A stretch of 64,000 bases of DNA from a virus, in the IMG/VR virus record IMGVR_UViG_3300047281_000098, positions 1 to 64,000 of that record. One strand, given 5' to 3'. The notes beneath the pieces are model-generated. The model saw only the letters and a program-made list of their open reading frames with translations, was not told the DNA's origin and searched no databases. The position numbers and the translations under genes were made by a program. Position 1 is the stretch's first letter; the number at the start of each line of letters is the position of its first letter. Shown here piece by piece: positions 2,678 to 51,678 of this stretch.

Positions 2678-2856
2678 AGCATATTTTTAAACCGCAGATT
2701 GATGAAGGTACAGACAAATTATACTTTATGTTAATTGATGGTGAACACAAGATGATTGAACGCCACGACGCAAATGATCTGGCAACGCTGCTACCTATGT
2801 TAGATGCGTTTCAATATATTGACACAGTAGAACGTATACCAAGATTTAGTAAATAA
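2659..2856 (+). CDS. hypothetical protein
   Basis: MILEDV start shared with previous gene. Confidence 0.75.
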   Translation: MILEDVEHIFKPQIDEGTDKLYFMLIDGEHKMIERHDANDLATLLPMLDAFQYIDTVERIPRFSK

Positions 2857-2860
2857 ACGC

Positions 2861-2894
2861 TTGACAAGCAAGAAGAATAAGTATATAATAAATA
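2861..2894 (+). promoter_or_regulatory. consensus sigma70 promoter with overlapping late-type TAAATA box, driving tmRNA
   Basis: TTGACA(2861)-17 nt-TATAAT(2884), TAAATA at 2889-2894. Confidence 0.85.
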
Positions 2895-2900
2895 CTTAAA

Positions 2901-3200
2901 CAGCGTAAAGTAGGGACTGAAAAATATTCAAGAACCCGGTTCGAATCCGGGCAGGTCCACCAGAAAGTATATCATTACATACGGTCTATATAATGACAGG
3001 TATACTTCCTAATGGGCCTGAACTGGTTCTCGATTGGGTATCAAGTATGTGTTCTATCGCTCGGCAATGTAGAAGCCGTTAGGATTGGGGTAACCCGGTC
3101 AAAGAAGCAAAACAAAAATAAATGCAAATGACGAAAGTTACGCATTAGCAGCCTAAAAACTGCTTAGGGTAGTTATACCTCGTAACAGAAAATAACATAA
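2901..3200 (+). ncRNA. ssrA: circularly permuted (two-piece) tmRNA; tag ANDESYALAA at 3124-3156
   Basis: T-arm CCCGG-TTCGAAT-CCGGG (2935-2951) and CAGGTCC-A-CCA (2952-2962) lie upstream of the acceptor 5' strand GGGCCTG (3014-3020) with the G3:U70 Ala determinant; tag ORF GCA AAT GAC GAA AGT TAC GCA TTA GCA GCC TAA; outer ends approximate. Confidence 0.95.
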
Positions 3201-3224
3201 AAAGGGTAATTAATTACCCTTTTT
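3199..3224. terminator. bidirectional intrinsic terminator after tmRNA
   Basis: perfect palindrome AAAAAGGGTAATTAATTACCCTTTTT. Confidence 0.85.
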
Positions 3225-3226
3225 AT

Positions 3227-3255
3227 TTGACTATCATCAGACGATGATATATAAT
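3227..3255 (+). promoter_or_regulatory. sigma70-type promoter
   Basis: TTGACT-17 nt-TATAAT. Confidence 0.75.
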
Positions 3256-15159: not shown

Positions 15160-15572
15160 GAATGCTAATTGGAACAAGTTTGGGTGGATGCCTTCAATCT
15201 ATCATGAAGGGTGAAGTGTCCGAGGATGAAGTATTGCTACTAATTACCCGCACAATGTGTACTTCACAAGAGGGATTGATGGCGATTGTGGAAATGTATC
15301 ATAGTAACGGTAATTTCCTGGCATCACGTCCAGATCAATATAAAATGAGTGAGTTTCCTCTTGACGAGGTGAAGGCGCTTGCTATTAGATTGTACCAAGC
15401 TGGTAAAATTCATCAGCCTCGCAACTTTAATGAATATAGTGGGTTCATTCACCCCGGACTCGCACAAGGTGATGGATGCTGGATTGAAGTTAATCCGCTT
15501 GGTATTAATTCAAATCCAATAGTAGTAGATGCCTACGAAAAATATAAGATGCTGGATTCATTGACCAAATGA
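15156..15572 (+). CDS. hypothetical protein
   Basis: tiled ORF, ATGA overlaps. Confidence 0.75.
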   Translation: MRMLIGTSLGGCLQSIMKGEVSEDEVLLLITRTMCTSQEGLMAIVEMYHSNGNFLASRPDQYKMSEFPLDEVKALAIRLYQAGKIHQPRNFNEYSGFIHPGLAQGDGCWIEVNPLGINSNPIVVDAYEKYKMLDSLTK

Positions 15573-15835
15573 CAGAGTACACAATCAATCCACTAACATG
15601 GTTTGCTGGCCGAGAATCAACATTCACTCCTGAACACTTTACAGTGGCAAATGAGCCGCTTACCCCGCAATCTAAACAATGGATCATTGATAAATTGTCT
15701 GGTAGGTATTCTATTGTACAGTATATCGAATCAGAAACTGGGGTAACTATATTCCAGTCATATTCACGACTTTTCGGGCAACCTGCCTTCGAAGATCCTA
15801 AAGAAGCAGTACTTTATGAGCTTAGATGGTCATAA
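15569..15835 (+). CDS. dispersed LRW-family small protein
   Basis: ends FEDPKEAVLYELRWS like the 45-51 kb array. Confidence 0.75.
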   Translation: MTEYTINPLTWFAGRESTFTPEHFTVANEPLTPQSKQWIIDKLSGRYSIVQYIESETGVTIFQSYSRLFGQPAFEDPKEAVLYELRWS

Positions 15836-15909
15836 AGTAGTATTATAAATATTTCACACCAAATTACTCTTATTAAATAAGTTTATATCATATAACAAGG
15901 AGAACATAT

Positions 15910-39052: not shown

Positions 39053-40063
39053 ATGGCAACAGTTCGCATTCTCTCTGGCACGTATCGTAATCAGGCAGTT
39101 ATTGACAAAAGCTTTACACTTGTAAAGGGATTTCAGACTTCTAAAACTGGCAGTTATGTGACAGTTCAGAATGATGGACAGTTTGCGATTGATATCGCAG
39201 TTGTTAAAGTTAAAGTAGACAGCATTGAACAAATTGAATTTATTGATGGGGCTCCCGAGTTGACAACTAATATTAAAACAGTTACAGAGACTGATGTAGA
39301 AGCAATGGACCGTATTGCTAGTCGTTTTTCAGTTCTTGATGAAATGTCCAGCGCATGTATCGCAGGTAACATTCGTGCGATGATTGTTACTGGTCCTCCG
39401 GGCGTAGGTAAATCTCACGGTGTTACTTTACAAATGGAAAAAGCATCTATGTTTGACAAAATTTCTGGCAAGCGTCCTCGCTTTCAGATTGTCAAAGGTG
39501 CTATGTCAGGCATTGGTCTGTTCGCAACATTGTACAAATACTCTGATGCTAAAAATGTGCTGGTGTTTGATGACTGTGATGTTTGGGAAGATCAAGACGC
39601 ATTGAACGTGTTGAAAGGTGCTCTTGATTCTGGTAAGACTCGTAGAATTTCTTGGAATAAAGATTCTCGTCTGTTGCGCGAAGAAGGTGTGCCGAATACT
39701 TTCAACTTCAATGGCTCTATCATCTTTATTACCAATCTCAACTTCAATGATCGTCGGTCCAAAAAGATTCAAGCTCACTTGGATGCGCTTCAATCTCGTT
39801 GTCACTATCTTGATCTGACTATCAATACTGAACGCGATAAAATTCTGCGTATCAAACAAGTACACCGCGATGCTGATGGTGGTCTGTTTGCTAGCTATGA
39901 TTTTGATAACAACGAAGGTGATATGATCGTTGAATTCATGGAGCAGAATAAAGATAAATTGCGCGAAGTGTCGATGCGTATGGGACTGAAGATTGCTGAC
40001 TTAGTAAAAATTAGCCCACACAATTGGAAGGTACTTACCCAAGCAACTTGTATGAGAGCATAA
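39053..40063 (+). CDS. AAA+ family ATPase
   Basis: GPPGVGKS, LVFDDCD, FITN, ALQSR. Confidence 0.88.
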   Translation: MATVRILSGTYRNQAVIDKSFTLVKGFQTSKTGSYVTVQNDGQFAIDIAVVKVKVDSIEQIEFIDGAPELTTNIKTVTETDVEAMDRIASRFSVLDEMSSACIAGNIRAMIVTGPPGVGKSHGVTLQMEKASMFDKISGKRPRFQIVKGAMSGIGLFATLYKYSDAKNVLVFDDCDVWEDQDALNVLKGALDSGKTRRISWNKDSRLLREEGVPNTFNFNGSIIFITNLNFNDRRSKKIQAHLDALQSRCHYLDLTINTERDKILRIKQVHRDADGGLFASYDFDNNEGDMIVEFMEQNKDKLREVSMRMGLKIADLVKISPHNWKVLTQATCMRA

Positions 40064-44227: not shown

Positions 44228-44906
44228 TCCAGTAAAATATGAATGTGAATTTTGTAAGAGAGAATTCGCAAAGGAAGCCACGGTATTCAAACATATATGC
44301 CAATACAAACATCGTTGGGTTGAACGCGACAAGAAGGGCAATCGTATTGGATTTCAAGCTTGGCTACAATTCTATACTCGCAACAGCACAAGTAAAAAGA
44401 ATAGGACCGTTGAAGAATTTATCAAAAGTCCGTACTACAACGCATTTGTAAAATTTGGCAATTACTGTGCGGAAATTAATGCGATAAGCGTCAGTAGATT
44501 CATTGATTGGTTACTGAAAGAACAGATAAAAATTGACACCTGGTGTCAAGACAGTGTTTATACAAAGTTTCTGATTGCTTATACCAGAATCGAAGATCCA
44601 ATGGACGCGATTGTTCGCAGCATTGAAACAACTATTAAATTAGCTGAAACAGAATCAATTCAATCACATGATTGTCTACGATATGGAAATGTAAATCGAA
44701 TTTGTTATGCCATTACCGCAGGGAAGATAAGTCCATGGTTGTTGTATCAAAGCGACAGCGGAACAACATTTCTGTCTAATCTAACTTCTGATAATGTTTC
44801 AATGATTCTTGATTATATCAACCCAGAGCAATGGGCTATTAAGTTCAAAAGATACCCAGAAATTGCTGCTGAAGTCAAAGCATTGTTACGAGCAGGTGGC
44901 TATTGA
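44205..44906 (+). CDS. C2H2-type zinc-finger hypothetical protein
   Basis: YECEFCKREF....FKHIC; start uncertain (44187 or 44205). Confidence 0.75.
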   Translation: MIKTAETNPVKYECEFCKREFAKEATVFKHICQYKHRWVERDKKGNRIGFQAWLQFYTRNSTSKKNRTVEEFIKSPYYNAFVKFGNYCAEINAISVSRFIDWLLKEQIKIDTWCQDSVYTKFLIAYTRIEDPMDAIVRSIETTIKLAETESIQSHDCLRYGNVNRICYAITAGKISPWLLYQSDSGTTFLSNLTSDNVSMILDYINPEQWAIKFKRYPEIAAEVKALLRAGGY

Positions 44907-44931
44907 CATTTAATCCATAATCTGTTATAAT
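44903..44931 (+). promoter_or_regulatory. early promoter heading the LRW array (leaderless)
   Basis: TTGACA-17 nt-TATAAT, ATG 6 nt downstream. Confidence 0.87.
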
Positions 44932-44937
44932 ACAGAT

Positions 44938-45273
44938 ATGAAGACATTATACGACCTTGAAAGTACGGGCTTACATAGTTTTAAGCGAGGTGAACTAACA
45001 TTGTTCACTGCTTATAGGCAGTCTGGCAAAAGTATGCTTAATCAATTGTACGGGACAATTATGACAAAAGGAAACTTTGAGATAACAGATCAGGCCCCAG
45101 TAGATGGAGAGACTTGGTATACTGTTGCGTGTGTCAGTGTCGTATGCGAATGGATGCGTGAGCAACCCAAAGAATTGTGGCACGAACACATTGACCTTAG
45201 GTGGATTCATTATTCAAACAAGTTTGACATACATGAAAAACTCTATACCGTGTTAGCACTGCGATGGAGCTAG
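44938..45273 (+). CDS. LRW-family protein with P-loop-like N-terminal fragment
   Basis: FKRGELTLFTAYRQSGKS ... LALRWS. Confidence 0.8.
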   Translation: MKTLYDLESTGLHSFKRGELTLFTAYRQSGKSMLNQLYGTIMTKGNFEITDQAPVDGETWYTVACVSVVCEWMREQPKELWHEHIDLRWIHYSNKFDIHEKLYTVLALRWS

Positions 45274-45500
45274 AACTAAGTGAAGGTGGAATACACGGTG
45301 CCAGGTATTATATAGTCAGACCCTGGCCATGGGACTCGCACATCACCTGGCTCACAATGGAAGCATGGGCTATTGGAACATTCGGACCAGACGGTGGCTC
45401 TATTTGGAATAATCTTAACTCACGCTGGTATATGAATAATAGCAAATTCTGGTTTCGCACTGAAGCGGATCGTACTTTTTTTATATTAAGATGGCAATGA
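45264..45500 (+). CDS. LRW-family protein
   Basis: ends FRTEADRTFFILRWQ. Confidence 0.8.
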   Translation: MELELSEGGIHGARYYIVRPWPWDSHITWLTMEAWAIGTFGPDGGSIWNNLNSRWYMNNSKFWFRTEADRTFFILRWQ

Positions 45501-45697
45501 GAATTCAAAAAGTGTCCAGCAGTGACAACATACATGCTCCTGGCGAATATATGTATAAAATTCATGACCACTGTAAAGATAGCGACACCCTGAGGGGGTG
45601 GAGAGACGAAATCAAGTTGGATTGTCTCATTTACTCCAATGTTGCTTATTTCAATACCGAAACAGATGCTATGTTTTTCATACTGAGATGGCAATGA
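45497..45697 (+). CDS. LRW-family protein
   Basis: ends FNTETDAMFFILRWQ. Confidence 0.8.
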   Translation: MRIQKVSSSDNIHAPGEYMYKIHDHCKDSDTLRGWRDEIKLDCLIYSNVAYFNTETDAMFFILRWQ

Positions 45698-45858
45698 CTA
45701 CCAATTACAGTTGGCAGTACAATGGTGCTGCCCCGTTCATAGATATCATGCAATGGTGCGTTGATACTTTTGAAAATGCTAACTGGTCTGCCAACTGGGA
45801 AACTTTTAGTTTCAATAATGAAAAAGATTATGTTTGGTTTGTATTGAGGTGGCAATGA
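45694..45858 (+). CDS. LRW-family protein
   Basis: WCVDTF...FNNEKDYVWFVLRWQ. Confidence 0.8.
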   Translation: MTTNYSWQYNGAAPFIDIMQWCVDTFENANWSANWETFSFNNEKDYVWFVLRWQ

Positions 45859-46097
45859 GAAAACTAATTCCAAATAATATAACTGTTACTGAACAGATTG
45901 CGATCCATCGTCAGTTTTTTAATATGGTTGGAAAATGGCGTCGTAGTCAGCAGCCTGTTTTAAGAAAGGATGAATACTTGCAGTGTTTGGAAGAGGACAG
46001 CGGTGTTCGGTGCCAATATAGTAGCGGTGGTCAGTTGACAGGATTCGAAGTTATTGATGAAAAGACTTATACCTGGTTTGTGTTGAAATGGACATGA
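45855..46097 (+). CDS. LRW-family protein
   Basis: ends DEKTYTWFVLKWT. Confidence 0.8.
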   Translation: MRKLIPNNITVTEQIAIHRQFFNMVGKWRRSQQPVLRKDEYLQCLEEDSGVRCQYSSGGQLTGFEVIDEKTYTWFVLKWT

Positions 46098-46330
46098 ACG
46101 ATACTACAAGTTGGATTACCTTTGGTAAAGACCATTATCATTTAAACAGGGTAATGGAGCAGTGGTGTCACGAACATATCGGGCAAGGTGGATGGGCACA
46201 CGAAACACCAAAGGCTTGGGGATGTATGATGGGCGATAAGATTTGGGTAATGCATAGTATGTTTGGTAACACAACTTTTTGCTTTAAAGAAGAAAAAGAC
46301 TTTATGTGGTTTAAGTTGAGGTGGGCATGA
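46094..46330 (+). CDS. LRW-family protein
   Basis: WCHEHIG...FKEEKDFMWFKLRWA. Confidence 0.8.
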   Translation: MNDTTSWITFGKDHYHLNRVMEQWCHEHIGQGGWAHETPKAWGCMMGDKIWVMHSMFGNTTFCFKEEKDFMWFKLRWA

Positions 46331-46554
46331 GTTTTATAACAGTTTCGCGTAATTTGAACGCTGATGAGTTAAGAGATTGGTTAGTCACCAATGTTGGAAA
46401 AGAGATCGGCAAGGGAGCTTATGCTAGAAAATGTGGCGACGGATGGGACTTGGATACGACCATTGGTTACAGGGAAATTCCCGCTGTCTTAAAATGGGGC
46501 ATAACCATTGATGACGAAGCATTAGCAGTATTTTTTAAATTGAGGTGGGCATGA
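46327..46554 (+). CDS. LRW-family protein
   Basis: WLVTNVG...DDEALAVFFKLRWA. Confidence 0.8.
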   Translation: MSFITVSRNLNADELRDWLVTNVGKEIGKGAYARKCGDGWDLDTTIGYREIPAVLKWGITIDDEALAVFFKLRWA

Positions 46555-46865
46555 ATAATAAAACAATTGAAGATTTTGTAATCCGTTACGGTGCCAAAGT
46601 AAATTACGAACAAAGACGCGACTATAATACTTATAATACTATGGGTAGGGCAATGGATTACTATTCATTGGATTACTATGGCAATGGTAACAGCATAGTA
46701 GGCATTGAACTACCTTTAAAGGCATTTGAGCACTTAGTCAACTCGGATAATCAAGCTGATGTAGACTATCAAGCTGGTAAGGAAGAGGCTCGCATTCGTG
46801 CTCGGTATCCATCAGTAGCAGAAGCGTATGCTCAATATAAAATGTTACTTGAACTATGCAGATAA
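46551..46865 (+). CDS. hypothetical protein (non-LRW array member)
   Basis: ends YPSVAEAYAQYKMLLELCR. Confidence 0.78.
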   Translation: MNNKTIEDFVIRYGAKVNYEQRRDYNTYNTMGRAMDYYSLDYYGNGNSIVGIELPLKAFEHLVNSDNQADVDYQAGKEEARIRARYPSVAEAYAQYKMLLELCR

Positions 46866-47251
46866 TTGAATATATTAAAGACAAGTATCTAACTTGGCGT
46901 ACTGGCCAAGATAAGCAAACACGCGATTGGAATAAGTGGTTGTATGAAACTGTTCTATTTCGTGCTGACACGATTGAAAATATGTTTGTGAACTTTAAAT
47001 ACATACTACCAGTGTCCGTAGAGATATTTGATCTTGAAGAACCGTTTGGATGGGCACTGGGCGATGACATTCGACAGTATATGTATCCTAACCGAGCATT
47101 AGGTGACTGTGCGGTTCATTACTTTGCGCGTGGGTTTCGCCATCAATGGGATGGTCGCTTTCACCTTAATGAAATTAGCGGTGGTGATCAAGTGTTTATA
47201 GCAACTAACAACAGCAAGGATGCTATGATGATAGCATTGAAGTATTCATGA
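46856..47251 (+). CDS. LRW-related protein
   Basis: ends KDAMMIALKYS. Confidence 0.78.
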   Translation: MQIIEYIKDKYLTWRTGQDKQTRDWNKWLYETVLFRADTIENMFVNFKYILPVSVEIFDLEEPFGWALGDDIRQYMYPNRALGDCAVHYFARGFRHQWDGRFHLNEISGGDQVFIATNNSKDAMMIALKYS

Positions 47252-47580
47252 ACGATTTACAAATAGAAATACACAAGCGCACTATGAAGCTGCTATCTAC
47301 TGTAATGGCACAATCTATTATAGGGGTGCAACCTATGCCAAATACTGGTATCTTCAATGTAAGGTTTAGTAAATCTAAATATAAATTCAACCGTGCTAAA
47401 TGGTATGTAGCAGTGTATAACTACAACTATTATTACGAAGTAGTTGAATGGTGTGCTGAACAGTTCGGCCCACATCCCGAGCAACCAGATGCTTGGAGTC
47501 GTTGGGTACACAAATACGAAGATACGATTCACTTCCGTGATGAAAAAGATTATATTTGGTTTACATTGAGGTGGTCATGA
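47248..47580 (+). CDS. LRW-family protein with major-capsid-like GVQPM fragment
   Basis: MAQSIIGVQPMPNTGIF ... WCAEQFG ... FRDEKDYIWFTLRWS. Confidence 0.82.
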   Translation: MNDLQIEIHKRTMKLLSTVMAQSIIGVQPMPNTGIFNVRFSKSKYKFNRAKWYVAVYNYNYYYEVVEWCAEQFGPHPEQPDAWSRWVHKYEDTIHFRDEKDYIWFTLRWS

Positions 47581-47765
47581 AATTACTGGAAGACTACTCA
47601 GTATCATTGAGCGCAGACAGATGGATCAAAATAAAAGAACAATTAACAAAAGTTGAATCTAATTCATTGGTGTCTATTACTTGGACAGGTCCGTTTGAAA
47701 GAACCAGAATATTACGATTTAAATCTGAGAATGATGCATTGATATTTGTATTGAGGTGGAGCTAA
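47577..47765 (+). CDS. LRW-family protein
   Basis: ends FKSENDALIFVLRWS. Confidence 0.8.
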   Translation: MKLLEDYSVSLSADRWIKIKEQLTKVESNSLVSITWTGPFERTRILRFKSENDALIFVLRWS

Positions 47766-48016
47766 TGATTACATATAAAGTACTGTGGACCGAGTTACCA
47801 CATATTAAAGTACCGGTATTACACACGGTAATGTATGCTCACAGTACAGATGGAGTAGACGCAAAATATCAACGAAGTTATAAGGATCATTTAGTAGATG
47901 AGTGGTTAAAAGCAAACTGTCGGGCGCCTTACTATCACTCTACCTATCATACAGAAAAGTTTATACAATTTGAAGATGATGAAGATGCTATGTGGTTTTC
48001 TTTGAGGTGGTCATGA
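47765..48016 (+). CDS. LRW-family protein
   Basis: ends FEDDEDAMWFSLRWS. Confidence 0.8.
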   Translation: MITYKVLWTELPHIKVPVLHTVMYAHSTDGVDAKYQRSYKDHLVDEWLKANCRAPYYHSTYHTEKFIQFEDDEDAMWFSLRWS

Positions 48017-48273
48017 TATATAACGAAATAGAACAAGACATTATAAACAGAGCAGGCAAGGAACTATCCAGTGAAATTGACTTCCATGTACTTGCTGATT
48101 TATACTCACAAGACGGCTGGACTGAAGTTAATTTGCCGAGACAGCCCAGAGAAACAGTAGTTGAGATTCTATCCTGGTGTGCGAGTCATAATATTAAGTG
48201 CTATGGCAGAGGGCAACGATGGGTGTTTGAGAAGAAGCAAGACGCCTTGTTCTTTAGTTTGAGGTGGGCATGA
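48013..48273 (+). CDS. LRW-family protein with major-capsid-like helix
   Basis: EIEQDII...KELSSEIDFHVLADL ... FEKKQDALFFSLRWA. Confidence 0.82.
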   Translation: MIYNEIEQDIINRAGKELSSEIDFHVLADLYSQDGWTEVNLPRQPRETVVEILSWCASHNIKCYGRGQRWVFEKKQDALFFSLRWA

Positions 48274-48449
48274 TTGTTACATTACCATATGATCCAGCAT
48301 GGAAAGCATTAGAATGGGCTAAAGACCATTGTCCTGATTATGTTACTAATGAAGTACACCCCCACAAAGCATGGATTCGCCCGATTCAGATTGACTACTT
48401 CTTTTCGTCCGAGCGAGATGCTGTATTTTTTAGTTTGAGGTGGGTATGA
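48270..48449 (+). CDS. LRW-family protein
   Basis: ends FSSERDAVFFSLRWV. Confidence 0.8.
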   Translation: MIVTLPYDPAWKALEWAKDHCPDYVTNEVHPHKAWIRPIQIDYFFSSERDAVFFSLRWV

Positions 48450-48691
48450 AATACTTTAGCAGTAGCGGAGGCAACAATAAACCATACTTTGCCCATCGTA
48501 TTAAATTACCCAAAGTGGTTAGTGAAGCATATGACTGGTGCTTAGAGTACCCAGATCAAGATAGACCCTTTAGAAGATTCCATGTAGAATGGGATCATTA
48601 TCCAGAGGGAAAATACGGGCATAAAGGTTATGAAATTATTCAATTTGAGTGGGAAGAAGCCGCCATTATGTTTACATTGAGGTGGTTATGA
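48446..48691 (+). CDS. LRW-family protein
   Basis: ends FEWEEAAIMFTLRWL. Confidence 0.8.
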   Translation: MKYFSSSGGNNKPYFAHRIKLPKVVSEAYDWCLEYPDQDRPFRRFHVEWDHYPEGKYGHKGYEIIQFEWEEAAIMFTLRWL

Positions 48692-48957
48692 GAGTAGAGT
48701 TTAGACAAGGTGTGCCTGACGGATGTGCCCGGTGGCTACGTGAGAATGTTGGACTGGGTAATATTGAGGAAGACAGCAACAACAAGAGAACACGGCAGGG
48801 GATGATTGACATGCCTGAGTATGCTTGGTTCTATGAGCGGGTAGCAATTATACCCGACGATGCCTTGAGTCTGCTTTACGAGTCCATTCATTATGTTCCT
48901 ACTATCACAGTTAAAGATCCCGAGTTGGCTACATTTTTTAGTTTGAGGTGGTTATAA
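48688..48957 (+). CDS. LRW-family protein
   Basis: ends KDPELATFFSLRWL. Confidence 0.8.
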   Translation: MRVEFRQGVPDGCARWLRENVGLGNIEEDSNNKRTRQGMIDMPEYAWFYERVAIIPDDALSLLYESIHYVPTITVKDPELATFFSLRWL

Positions 48958-49172
48958 TGGTAGACTGGCTTAATGACAGCTCTGACGAAGTTTATTGCGC
49001 TGATTCAGAAGCGTTTGAAAACTTTTTTCATGACTTCTGCCTAAATGGAAAAGCCAAAGGAGCAGAATGGGGTCCTGACTATTGGGAACAACATGGCATT
49101 AAGGTTGTGAACAGTAGAGTAGAATATGATACCCCTGCACATCGCACTATGTTTTTATTGAGGTGGTTATGA
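48957..49172 (+). CDS. LRW-family protein
   Basis: ends RTMFLLRWL. Confidence 0.8.
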   Translation: MVDWLNDSSDEVYCADSEAFENFFHDFCLNGKAKGAEWGPDYWEQHGIKVVNSRVEYDTPAHRTMFLLRWL

Positions 49173-49432
49173 AGAAACCTAAACCAAAGAAGCCAAAAGC
49201 TAAAATACCCAAAGGTGCATTGATAGTTGACTACGGCTTGTATCGTGTAATCCTACCTTATAAACACCCGATTGACTTGTATAATAACAAAGAATTAGAT
49301 ATAATATGTGAATGGTGCGATAGAACATTTCCAAAAGATGATTGGAGATGTAGCAGAAGTAGCTGGCCAGGTCATGTCTACTTTTTAAAAGAAAGCTATC
49401 TGACAATGTTTTTATTGATGTGGGCAAAATAA
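49169..49432 (+). CDS. LRW-family protein
   Basis: WCDRTF...TMFLLMWAK. Confidence 0.78.
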   Translation: MKKPKPKKPKAKIPKGALIVDYGLYRVILPYKHPIDLYNNKELDIICEWCDRTFPKDDWRCSRSSWPGHVYFLKESYLTMFLLMWAK

Positions 49433-49433
49433 T

Positions 49434-49874
49434 ATGGTTCAGCTAACTAGACCTGTACCGCCAAAACCAAGCATGATACCGTGGCCATATAAGTTGCCTC
49501 GCAATAAATTAGAAAGACAAGAAGATATGGCTAAATGGGAAATACATAAACGAGCAGGCAATCTAGTAGAAGCTGCTTGGTGGCACTGGATGCCAGGGGT
49601 AACAATTAATGTTAAATGGCCTGTTGGTTTAGTATTTGTGCTTGATGAAAAAGATCGTCGGTGGGATTGGACCATGGGAACAACCAAGCAATCATTTGAC
49701 TCGGCGGACCCTAACGACCATTATAGACCTTGGCTTGAAAAGAATGTTGGCAAGCAGGGATGGGATTGGCAATGGGGACTTAGAGATAACAACGCAGCAG
49801 AGAATAGACTTACTATTAAAGTTAGAACTAAACATGCCAAGTGGGCAACAGTCGCCTCACTTCTGTGGGGATAA
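49434..49874 (+). CDS. LRW-related protein
   Basis: WLEKNVGKQGWDW...ASLLWG. Confidence 0.78.
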   Translation: MVQLTRPVPPKPSMIPWPYKLPRNKLERQEDMAKWEIHKRAGNLVEAAWWHWMPGVTINVKWPVGLVFVLDEKDRRWDWTMGTTKQSFDSADPNDHYRPWLEKNVGKQGWDWQWGLRDNNAAENRLTIKVRTKHAKWATVASLLWG

Positions 49875-49877
49875 GTA

Positions 49878-50099
49878 ATGGATTTTGACTTCAACAAGGA
49901 AAAGCGATTTATCCTTGTCCCTGCTAATCTTGAGTTTTCAAAACTCATGGTCATACTAACTGATATGGACTATTGGAACACACATTACGAAGCACTCAAA
50001 GACTGGTGCGATCTACAACTAGGAACTAATCAAGTTGGGATGACGGTTGAGTTCGACAGTGAGCAGGACCTGATGTTGTTTATATTAAGATGGAGCTAG
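49878..50099 (+). CDS. LRW-family protein
   Basis: ends FDSEQDLMLFILRWS. Confidence 0.8.
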   Translation: MDFDFNKEKRFILVPANLEFSKLMVILTDMDYWNTHYEALKDWCDLQLGTNQVGMTVEFDSEQDLMLFILRWS

Positions 50100-50100
50100 A

Positions 50101-50367
50101 GTGAAACACATATTCAGAAATTTAATTCGCAAAGAGAAATGGACTCTTGTGGAAATTAAGCCGACCAAGGACACAATGTGGTCTTCTGGTGGGGAAGATT
50201 TAAATCGGCAAGACTATATTAAAATGCGGAATTGGTGCGAACAAACTTTTCACAAAGAAGTATTCGCCACTTCATTACAATCAGTACACGGAGTTAGTCC
50301 TGGATTGAAACGATTCATATTCAACAATCCCGCAGATGCCACGATGTTCAGATTGCGTTGGGAATGA
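50101..50367 (+). CDS. LRW-family protein
   Basis: WCEQTF...FNNPADATMFRLRWE. Confidence 0.8.
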   Translation: MKHIFRNLIRKEKWTLVEIKPTKDTMWSSGGEDLNRQDYIKMRNWCEQTFHKEVFATSLQSVHGVSPGLKRFIFNNPADATMFRLRWE

Positions 50368-50597
50368 CTAAGACCTCTGTTACAGTTTACGGTGCGTATG
50401 CTCCAATGCTAAAATGGCTAAGTGACAACATAGGCGCGGAGCTTCACAGTATGCCAATTGTTTTTTGGTACGGAAAAGGTTGGTTCATGAAACGCACATC
50501 TGATATTAGAGAAGAAAGAGTTGGACTCAGGGCTGGCTGGTCAGTTGATTTTGATGATGATCAGAATGCGACATGGTTCGCATTAATATGGGGATAA
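50364..50597 (+). CDS. LRW-family protein
   Basis: WLSDNIG...FDDDQNATWFALIWG. Confidence 0.8.
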   Translation: MTKTSVTVYGAYAPMLKWLSDNIGAELHSMPIVFWYGKGWFMKRTSDIREERVGLRAGWSVDFDDDQNATWFALIWG

Positions 50598-50598
50598 T

Positions 50599-50874
50599 AT
50601 GGCAATTTTAAATACACACGCACATGGATACTTTAGAGCAGTTGAATACGAGACAATAGAAGTAATAGACATGCCTCGCACCTACGGCGCCAAGAAAGTA
50701 TACACGTATGATTGTAGGGCAAAGTCAGAAGATCCAAGCATTATTGTAAAATGGTGCAGAAGAAACTTTGGGCAGCGAGGTGATGGTTGGGACTTTACTT
50801 TTCACTCAGACCGTGTTACAATAGAGATTACAAAAGACGAGTTTAAGACAATGTACGAAATGTGGAAACTATAA
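50599..50874 (+). CDS. LRW-related protein
   Basis: WCRRNFGQRGDGW...MYEMWKL. Confidence 0.78.
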   Translation: MAILNTHAHGYFRAVEYETIEVIDMPRTYGAKKVYTYDCRAKSEDPSIIVKWCRRNFGQRGDGWDFTFHSDRVTIEITKDEFKTMYEMWKL

Positions 50875-51419
50875 TGGCAAATAATGTAATGATAGATTTG
50901 GAAACGCTGGACACAAGTCCATTCTGCGTTATCCTCACGATTGGAGCAGTAGTATTCGACCCTAAGGGCAACGGTATCGTTGACAAGATTGATCTGCGAC
51001 CTTCAATTGAAGAACAACTTGATATGGGCAGAGTTATCAACGATGAAACTGTTAAGTGGTGGGGCAATCAAAGTGAGGCGGCGCAACATGAAGCACTAGG
51101 TGATCATGACCGAATTCCCTTCAAGGAAGCAATGGAGAAACTTCATAAATTCTGTTGGAACAAAGGTAACCCCTGGAGTCACGGCGCAGCGTTTGACATT
51201 GTAGCAGTGGAAACATCTTGGGCCAGCTTTAAGATGCAACCACCATGGGACTTTTACAAAGTACGAGACACACGAACATTGTTTGATGTTACTGGAGTGA
51301 ATCTTAAAGACGGTGGTTATGTGACAACTCACAAGGCTTCCGAAGATGCGGCACGTCAGGCATTCATTGTACAGAAGGCGTATAAGATTCTCATTGCCGC
51401 CGGAGTAACCCCTCCGTGA
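50874..51419 (+). CDS. DEDDh 3'-5' exonuclease (DexA-like)
   Basis: MIDLETL, SHGAAFD, RDTRT, HKASEDA; start at 50874. Confidence 0.9.
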   Translation: MANNVMIDLETLDTSPFCVILTIGAVVFDPKGNGIVDKIDLRPSIEEQLDMGRVINDETVKWWGNQSEAAQHEALGDHDRIPFKEAMEKLHKFCWNKGNPWSHGAAFDIVAVETSWASFKMQPPWDFYKVRDTRTLFDVTGVNLKDGGYVTTHKASEDAARQAFIVQKAYKILIAAGVTPP

Positions 51420-51423
51420 AATT

Positions 51424-51678
51424 ATGAAGATTAATCCTAAACTTAAACCAGACGAGTTAGCTCTTTTATCAGTAGATTCTGCTAGGAGATATTTTCTATT
51501 AAACGTTAATACCACTAAACTAGCACCGGACGAAGATTCTATACAGCATGAGTTTGCACTGTGGTTAGAAACAGAATACTCCTGTAAAATGTGGCGCCCG
51601 TATAAAGGAGCAACAAGACGGTTGAAATTTAATGATATGGCTAAATTAGTTTGGTTTAAACTCAAATATGAAATTTAA
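51424..51678 (+). CDS. LRW-related protein
   Basis: ends FNDMAKLVWFKLKYEI. Confidence 0.7.
   Translation: MKINPKLKPDELALLSVDSARRYFLLNVNTTKLAPDEDSIQHEFALWLETEYSCKMWRPYKGATRRLKFNDMAKLVWFKLKYEI

Follow-up and report, generated by a model that had tools for sequence, protein, structure and literature searches.

A small gene at 48013..48273 of the 64-kb window analyzed here (the whole stretch of DNA under study, and the first part of the 105,264-bp IMG/VR virus contig IMGVR_UViG_3300047281_000098; CheckV completeness ~30%) encodes an N-terminal helix that is almost certainly a shortened version of a captured fragment of the major capsid protein (MCP) of the Gp23 family. The helix is joined to a C-terminal domain, the LRW domain, that recurs through a tandem array of small genes. 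The case for homology is made by profile comparisons and by transitive homology through a large family of related proteins, the single target sequence falling below every threshold. Beyond common descent, we put the probability that the helix still acts as an MCP mimic at roughly 0.6, a reading that is weighed below against its alternatives. The gene (hereafter the target) and its parts are arranged as follows.

48013..48273, + strand: target gene, 86 residues plus stop, with an N-terminal helix followed by the LRW domain
48004..48010, + strand: Shine-Dalgarno sequence GAGGTGG of the target, which the preceding gene provides through its Leu-Arg-Trp codons (TTG AGG TGG)
48025..48117, + strand: MCP-like helix, residues 5-35, homologous to clade MCP 185-215 and to Pfam Gp23 positions ~168-200
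48118..48270, + strand: LRW domain, residues 36-86, comprising a GWT strand, a W-C helix, a hairpin, and a DAxxFxLRW helix
48261..48267, + strand: GAGGTGG contained in the L-R-W codons of the target, as ribosome-binding site of the next gene (ATG 48270, ATGA overlap)

The first-pass annotation of this DNA had marked 48013..48105, which corresponds to the first 31 codons of the 86-codon gene, and the peptide that it quoted in front of a WC...FFSLRWA domain is present as given. Residues 5-30 read EIEQDIINRAGKELSSEIDFHVLADL in the translation of window 48013..48270, the helix terminates in a conserved Gly that is common to the MCP, and the C-terminus of the protein is SWCASH...FFSLRWA (also written SWCASH...RWVFEKKQDALFFSLRWA). 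The start codon, ATG 48013, overlaps the stop codon of the preceding gene (ATGA). The complete capsid fold (~376 model positions; 390-520 residues) is not present in the 86-residue target, which is best described as a carrier of a Gp23-derived fragment and not as a capsid protein.

The large terminase of the contig shares 48-50% identity with its counterparts in Pseudomonas phage PA5oct and Sinorhizobium phage Phosso, and 42-43% with those in Vibrio phage 2.275.O and two Xanthomonas jumbo phages; other genes encode a tail sheath, tail tube, UvsX, SSB, helicases, a primase, and a clamp loader. On the basis of these terminase identities and this tail and replication gene content, the source is assigned to the jumbo myoviruses, in a group with T4 gp23-type capsid proteins (PMC7824862). 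Neither megablast of the array nor tblastn of the target against 50,697 phage records returned a close cultured relative.

The N-terminal helix and the major capsid protein

Because no Gp23-family gene was found on the 105-kb contig, the target was compared with the MCPs of relatives, namely those of PA5oct, Phosso, Vibrio phage 2.275.O, and T4, together with 79 further clade MCPs from IMG/VR. The relevant MCP segment is nearly invariant within the clade, reading G-[IL]-D-[IV]-E-A-E-[IV]-M-x-A-L-A-Q-E-I-T-x-E-I-D-Q-E-[ILVM]-[IL]..L..L.G. When a profile of 14 target orthologues is aligned with hhalign to one of 82 clade MCPs, target residues 5-35 fall on MCP residues 185-215 without gaps (score 35.7, P 5e-5). 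The N-terminus on its own yields a score of 34.1 (P 1e-5), a profile of 150 family representatives a P of 8e-6, and the built-in comparison against only three MCPs a P of 1.4e-4. Across this range (P 8e-6 to 1.4e-4), the N-terminal helix corresponds to a segment of the spine helix of the Gp23 family, in agreement with the earlier suggestion that it follows the backbone helix of gp23-type proteins.

The observed hhalign score was attained by none of 400 shuffled profiles. Column shuffling (200 profiles) gave a mean score of 11.0, with a standard deviation of 2.2 and a maximum of 20.6, and in another 200 profiles, shuffled under preservation of the hydrophobic/polar pattern, the mean was 12.1 and the maximum 27.7; the reversed profile scored 13.9. 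The pattern-keeping set (0/200) represents the comparison with shuffled amphipathic helices that the first-pass annotation had set beforehand as a control on its own claim, which passes it.

In six-frame searches of five complete or near-complete relatives, a 37-column profile of the N-terminus finds the spine helix of the MCP in each of the five (E values of 4e-5 to 0.02 per genome), with the MCP as the best match in three, and the full-length family profile matches the MCP helix also in three cultured phages. A hidden Markov model (HMM) of the helix only was searched, without filters, against 5,413 six-frame open reading frames (ORFs) from this contig and from a complete relative of 374 kb, G002. 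In this search, the target ranks first, the helix of the G002 MCP (363377..364570) second (E 8e-4), and the G002 orthologue of the target (157753..158055, - strand) third, which makes the G002 MCP the top non-family match genome-wide.

Against individual capsid proteins, the helix-only HMM scores 24.6 bits for the Phosso MCP, 13.6 for that of the Vibrio phage, 11.6 for PA5oct, 7.6 for T4 gp24, and 2.2 for T4 gp23, with the matches falling at the homologous position in all of the scored MCPs. The T4 gp23 string quoted in the first-pass annotation is correct and represents the homologous stretch (T4 gp23 residues 286-308), but with only 2.2 bits for T4 itself, the likeness is to the MCP of the clade. 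Since the similarity of the helix drops as MCP distance grows, this pattern fits descent from, or mimicry of, the clade's own MCP and not a generic helix.

Orthologues of the target, at 33-98% identity, include distant members that are more MCP-like than the target itself, for example with AITEEIDREIM or LADEIQKEIDESIM. A profile search of 1.84 billion representative proteins returned 929 clusters at E<=1e-3, of which 415 reach E<=1e-10, and the best 150 family representatives (78-116 residues) match over nearly their full length, including both the helix and the LRW domain. When these 150 representatives are scanned against the 24,736 families of Pfam, PF07068 (Gp23) is matched by 58 of them at E<=1 (best 2.3e-9), and the next most frequent family by only 4. 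The curated PF07068 cut-off of 24.4 bits, which the target does not reach, is exceeded by six of the eight members that were scanned individually.

P0060: 37.6 bits, Gp23 HMM positions 147-195
P0091: 37.0 bits, Gp23 HMM positions 136-199
P0016: 31.4 bits
P0106: 28.5 bits
P0034: 25.6 bits
P0073: 25.4 bits

In the longer members, the N-terminus is formed by the strand found just before the helix in the MCP, and the match extends over 50-67 residues within Pfam positions 136-226, such that their KTRKLSANW...HGIDLE...EIDNEIL can be read against KTRRLSARW...HGIDIE...EIDQEIL of the MCP. These Gp23-passing long forms still terminate in the standard LRW domain, and the Gp23-passing members align to the target over its positions 4-86 with E values of 1e-17 to 1e-21. 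Because members of the family pass the Gp23 cut-off and carry the preceding MCP strand, the helix is taken to be a captured capsid fragment and not a chance helix. No fused forms longer than 198 residues were found at E<=1, which is weak evidence at that database size. The fusion of an MCP-derived helix to the LRW domain is old and is conserved across hundreds of clusters.

The consensus of the family is identical to that of the MCP at 14 of the 31 helix columns (E7, E9, I10, L14, A15, E17, I18, E21, I22, D23, E25, I26, L27, and G35), and the target itself at nine. These shared columns are the best conserved of the family, with a mean top-residue frequency of 0.60 compared to 0.34 elsewhere (Mann-Whitney p 5e-5), which suggests that both helices, that of the family and that of the MCP, remain under a common constraint. 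The helix had earlier been pictured as a variable, displayed epitope; it appears instead as a fixed, conserved part of a widespread orthologous family.

The LRW hairpin and helix start, RWVFEKKQDA (window 48217-48246, target 69-78), resembles RWTFESAQDA of the MCP (MCP 169-178; hhalign P 0.0018-0.006), where the counterpart is the strand just before the spine helix. A circular permutation of an MCP piece, considered on account of this resemblance, was dropped, because the long members have, besides the LRW strand, a true MCP strand that stands before the helix as it does in the MCP.

Other capsid pieces and the LRW array

The target lies within an array of related genes, one of which carries a second piece of the MCP.

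44938..51678, + strand: LRW tandem array of ~24 small paralogous genes (54-146 residues), head-to-tail, of which the target is member 13
44903..44931, + strand: sigma-70-type promoter, with TTGACA, 17 nucleotides, TG (extended -10), and TATAAT; 12/12 consensus
47248..47580, + strand: sister module, 110 residues, in which residues 14-35 (…SIIGVQPMPNTGIF…) correspond to the GVQPM region of the clade MCP
15548..15835, + strand: single LRW-domain gene located away from the array (core HMM, E 9.2e-10)

The first-pass annotation had put forward the presence of two distinct capsid segments in one array, and the sister module at 47248..47580 supplies the other one, aligning to MCP residues 67-83 in the GVQPM region (MCP 66-90) with an hhalign P of 9.6e-5 and scoring 9.8 bits. 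Together with the target, it is one of two MCP-like modules among the 25 in this genome; the next best reaches P 0.06, and the N-termini of the 23 other modules are unrelated. Given these 2 of 25, the wider idea of an epitope library holds for a few module families, which do carry MCP pieces, but not for the array as a whole, which need not concern the capsid.

Related combinations occur in other genomes. In G002, the ORF at 160314..160664 begins with MIPMIRKILPKLIAQDIVGVQPM, compared to ILPVIRRVMPTVIANEIVGVQPM in that phage's own MCP (E 1.1e-5). Of the 23 residues in this GVQPM piece, 13 agree with the cognate MCP, and the same codon is used at 2 of these 13. Recent gene conversion between the piece and the MCP was rejected on this low number of identical codons, and because identical residues share so few codons, the likeness appears to be held at the amino-acid level. 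At another locus (L029), the ORF 3771..4121 matches the GVQPM region of the MCP HMM with 33.6 bits (E 1.9e-9). Phosso contains a 145-residue ORF in which the C-terminal FYxPYxPL region of the MCP is joined to an LRW-like domain, a 228-residue ORF with the GVQPM region and an unrelated C-terminus, and a 61-residue ORF with little beyond the LSLAEEIRIEIDRELIEDL helix. The loci of these Phosso ORFs are as follows.

L017: Phosso 112603-115794, - strand
L016: Phosso 180780-184046
L110: 2229..2414, - strand

Fragments of the capsid gene have thus evidently been captured repeatedly by one domain family. A phmmer comparison of 45 LRW N-termini with 391 long ORFs, aimed at other donor proteins, produced one further, borderline pair, between G002 164461..164739 (-) and G002 39133..40029 (+), at E 9e-4. 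The latter, a 299-residue ORF with no PHROG match, may be a second donor for module N-termini.

The array is dense, operon-like, and translationally coupled. Nearly all of its genes share an F-x-L-R-W-x ending, and their junctions are mostly stop/start overlaps (ATGA or TAATG). In the commonest junction, TTG AGG TGG NNA TGA, the L-R-W codons double as the GAGGTGG ribosome-binding site of the next gene. The exact TTG AGG TGG is found at 11 of 17 L-R-W ends, and since the remaining six use five other codon combinations, the peptide motif itself is evidently selected as well as the ribosome-binding site. The promoter stands seven bases upstream of the first array gene, and a T4-type late motif, TATAAATA, was not found anywhere in the array, which is flanked by replication genes and lies far from the contig's structural genes. 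An HMM of the LRW core domain detects 19 modules in the array plus the one at 15548; the target, itself included in this HMM, matches it at E 3.8e-9 and conforms to the core consensus W-[C/L]...G...W...F-x-F..[DE]xDAxxFxL[RK]Wx. Comparable LRW arrays are present in G002 and at all 12 orthologue loci.

AlphaFold2, run with the 14 orthologues, predicts the target with a mean predicted local distance difference test (pLDDT) score of 86.5 as a helix (2-33), a strand (37-40), a helix (46-58), a hairpin (63-72), and a helix (75-85). With 150 sequences the topology is unchanged; the pLDDT of residues 1-20 falls to 52-56, and that of the LRW domain, which spans 84-95 across both models, is 84-89. The order of elements in this domain, strand-helix-strand-strand-helix, is weakly ferredoxin/RRM/ACT-like, and its best structural matches have Z scores of 4.7-5.3 with a root-mean-square deviation of 1.5-2.0 over ~51 residues. 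A Foldseek search of the PDB gave nothing at E<=1e-3, and when the target and nine other modules were scanned against Pfam and PHROG, only noise appeared, with no family match. Matches in BFVD and the ESM Atlas are uncharacterized phage proteins only; one ESM Atlas cluster of ~114-residue proteins carries Pfam Gp23 in 13% of its members. The fold-search lists contain no capsid protein, only generic small alpha/beta matches. Neither the LRW domain nor capsid-fragment fusions are described in Pfam, PHROGs, BFVD names, or the literature searched, an absence that is not proof.

Several further features of the window and of related phages were noted. The array gene at 46551-46865 (+) has no LRW end, its 104-residue ORF terminating in ...LLELCR. 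The gene at 50874-51419 (+), in or at the end of the array, is also without an LRW end and contains a 181-residue ORF, the start of which (…VMIDLETLD…) looks like that of a DEDD-type 3'-5' exonuclease. Directly after the solitary LRW gene, at 15844-15851, is the T4 late-promoter-like TATAAATA, one of only two such motifs in the window. Among cultured jumbo phages, the LRW domain occurs once in PA5oct (181632-181796, +) and at at least 10 sites in Phosso; these copies are scattered rather than gathered in one array, and none has the helix. A transfer-messenger RNA (tmRNA) is encoded at window 2847-3247 (+), matching Rfam beta_tmRNA with 95.8 bits (gathering score 84) and carrying the tag peptide ANDESYALAA according to ARAGORN. 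This betaproteobacterial tmRNA type may be a hint to the host.

Possible functions of the captured helix

Continuing mimicry of the MCP is favored over a silent relic because of the conservation pattern that the two helices share. The hydrophobic stripe of the helix and its conserved acidic residues would together be too long for burial by the small domain, and since the first 20 residues are also modeled with low confidence, the helix may be free to bind in trans. As the helix stays MCP-like, its partner would most likely be one that makes contact with the spine helix of unassembled MCP as well; candidates are a host factor or immune sensor that recognizes newly made MCP, or the MCP itself. 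The combination of a sigma-70-type promoter with the lack of a late motif in the array suggests that the array would be transcribed early, by the host RNA polymerase, from the consensus promoter at 44903.

If the partner were a host sensor, the small protein could act as a pre-emptive antagonist decoy. A small stable domain would then present conserved MCP core segments before any capsid protein is made, these segments being the Gol-like GVQPM strand, the E-loop return strand with the spine helix, and, in Phosso, the C-terminal FYxPYxPL strands. Such decoys would occupy, without triggering them, the host sensors or factors of newly synthesized, unassembled capsid protein. Among specific functions, the antagonist decoy is ranked first because of the position of the array and the precedent of Gol/Lit (see below), and we advance it as a tentative proposal for what the mimic specifically does. 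Equally speculative is the extension to the LRW modules at large as a phage-encoded set of early antagonist decoys, of which, if such a set existed, the helix-LRW family would be the most widespread member.

A number of observations weigh against this overall explanation. Known capsid sensors are activated on binding their trigger, so that a decoy that binds without activating is an extra assumption. MCP-like modules are limited to the two of 25 described above. The target alone has no Gp23 match in Pfam at E<=1, and its N-terminus alone matches nothing there at E<=10; tblastn of the target against the 50,697 phage records gives no capsid match, and when the G002 orthologue is used as a single sequence in phmmer, the MCP is not the top-ranked match. 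As the contig has no Gp23-family gene, a comparison of the target with the MCP of its own genome is impossible, and no helix-LRW orthologue was found in the cultured relatives PA5oct, Phosso, and Vibrio 2.275.O. The first AlphaFold2 model, moreover, assigns the helix a pLDDT of 71-83.

The last of these points would suit an exapted relic, in which the captured capsid piece is now only a structural or oligomerization element (for example, a dimerizing amphipathic helix), with no mimicry and no link to the capsid, and in which the likeness to the MCP persists merely because helix-forming residues change slowly. The first model does place the helix with moderate confidence, a stripe for self-association could arise from its hydrophobic positions, which return at every fourth residue, the members of the family have a uniform length and architecture, as ordinary folded proteins do, and the N-termini of the 23 other modules in the genome are unrelated. 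We nevertheless regard this explanation as rather unlikely. The columns shared with the MCP, which are the most conserved of the family, include six acidic residues and not just the hydrophobic stripe, and shuffles that preserve the hydrophobic/polar pattern never attain the observed score. Other MCP pieces, furthermore, occur on independent LRW modules and are likewise conserved in their amino acids, which is hard to reconcile with one accidental capture.

A role in capsid assembly, with the segment docking the small protein onto the MCP or prohead intermediates, is improbable. The array is located among replication genes, distant from the contig's structural genes, with a sigma-70-type promoter and no late-promoter motif, and an assembly-poisoning fragment would poison the phage's own capsids as well. 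Variants of this role include a modulator or holdase, a dominant-negative protein directed against co-infecting relatives, and a packaging and injection signal for the LRW protein; T4 internal proteins do use a short N-terminal capsid-targeting sequence. The captured pieces, moreover, all stem from the best-conserved core of the MCP (the GVQPM strand, the E-loop return strand with the spine helix, and the FYxPYxPL region) and would pair with MCP folding intermediates. A chance or convergent amphipathic helix without homology to the capsid helix is very improbable: the segment spans just 31 residues, with many Glu, Ile, and Leu among them, the target by itself lacks a significant match, and a NUDIX-like ORF in G002 also contains EIQEEID (E 0.068), but several members pass the Gp23 gathering cut-off over 50-67 residues that include the preceding strand, Gp23 is matched at E<=1 by 58 of 150 members and no other of the 24,736 families by more than 4, and the shuffle controls and genome-wide ranks agree against it.

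Few triggers of bacterial abortive-infection and toxin-antitoxin defenses are as common as major capsid proteins, and because the capsid core is highly constrained, phages are thought to escape mainly via point mutation. Here, a piece of this constrained core (the E-loop strand and spine helix) is borne by a large and conserved family of small phage proteins, probably early ones, and the Gol-like region and the C-terminal strand region by sister families. This points to a possible further escape route, in which capsid fragments are expressed as mimics. Whatever the function, hundreds of "hypothetical" jumbo-phage proteins gain a defined two-part anatomy, and the repeated capture of capsid-gene fragments by one domain family remains. 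At the gene junctions, one DNA stretch is under dual constraint, with the conserved protein C-terminus also forming the next gene's ribosome-binding site.

Comparison with known systems

Among known proteins, the capsid proteins of PF07068 are close to the target, i.e., T4 gp23, the vertex protein gp24, and the ~390-residue MCPs of PA5oct, Phosso, and Vibrio phage 2.275.O; it is to the spine-helix segment of this family that residues 5-35 align without gaps. The target family contains 30-65 of the 376 model positions of Gp23, and the other parts of the HK97-type fold are absent. An unrelated 50-residue domain stands in place of the remaining fold, and an 86-residue protein of this kind cannot form a shell. 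What appears to be new is Gp23-derived sequence in a new architecture, within an accessory-gene array.

The LRW domain superposes on the ferredoxin-like domains of Pes4 RRM4, BMY-1, and the TyrA ACT domain. A Z score of ~5 denotes a common arrangement according to the calibration of the tool, the last classical strand is missing, and there is no sequence relationship to these domains.

The array resembles the small, fast-evolving early accessory-gene arrays of T4-like and jumbo phages in its many short, packed genes, its early-type promoter, and its variable set of members of mostly unknown function. It differs from them in that its members share one common C-terminal domain, the last codons of which form the next gene's ribosome-binding site, and in that at least two subfamilies carry pieces of the capsid gene, for which no such description was found in the literature searched.

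A precedent for a host defense that perceives a short, highly conserved stretch of a Gp23-type protein is provided by T4, in which the Gol determinant, a stretch within the first quarter of gp23 that is described as its most conserved part, binds EF-Tu and enables the Lit protease (PMC3014915). The link to the proteins described here is one of analogy. The sister module at 47248 carries the equivalent GVQPM region, which in T4 gp23 also falls within the first quarter, with GVQPM itself at residues 112-116. The target, by comparison, corresponds to MCP 185-215 and not to 66-90, the spine helix lying ~170 residues further along T4 gp23. A capsid-fragment decoy was not described in the literature searched.

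Capsid-derived proteins also take part in conflicts between genetic elements in the form of satellite-encoded capsid homologues and size-redirecting proteins. Both they and the LRW fusions reuse capsid-gene material beyond its own standard shell. The satellite proteins are whole-fold or scaffold-like and act on assembly, whereas the fusions described here consist of a 30-65-residue fragment on a foreign domain and are encoded by the phage itself, probably for early expression.

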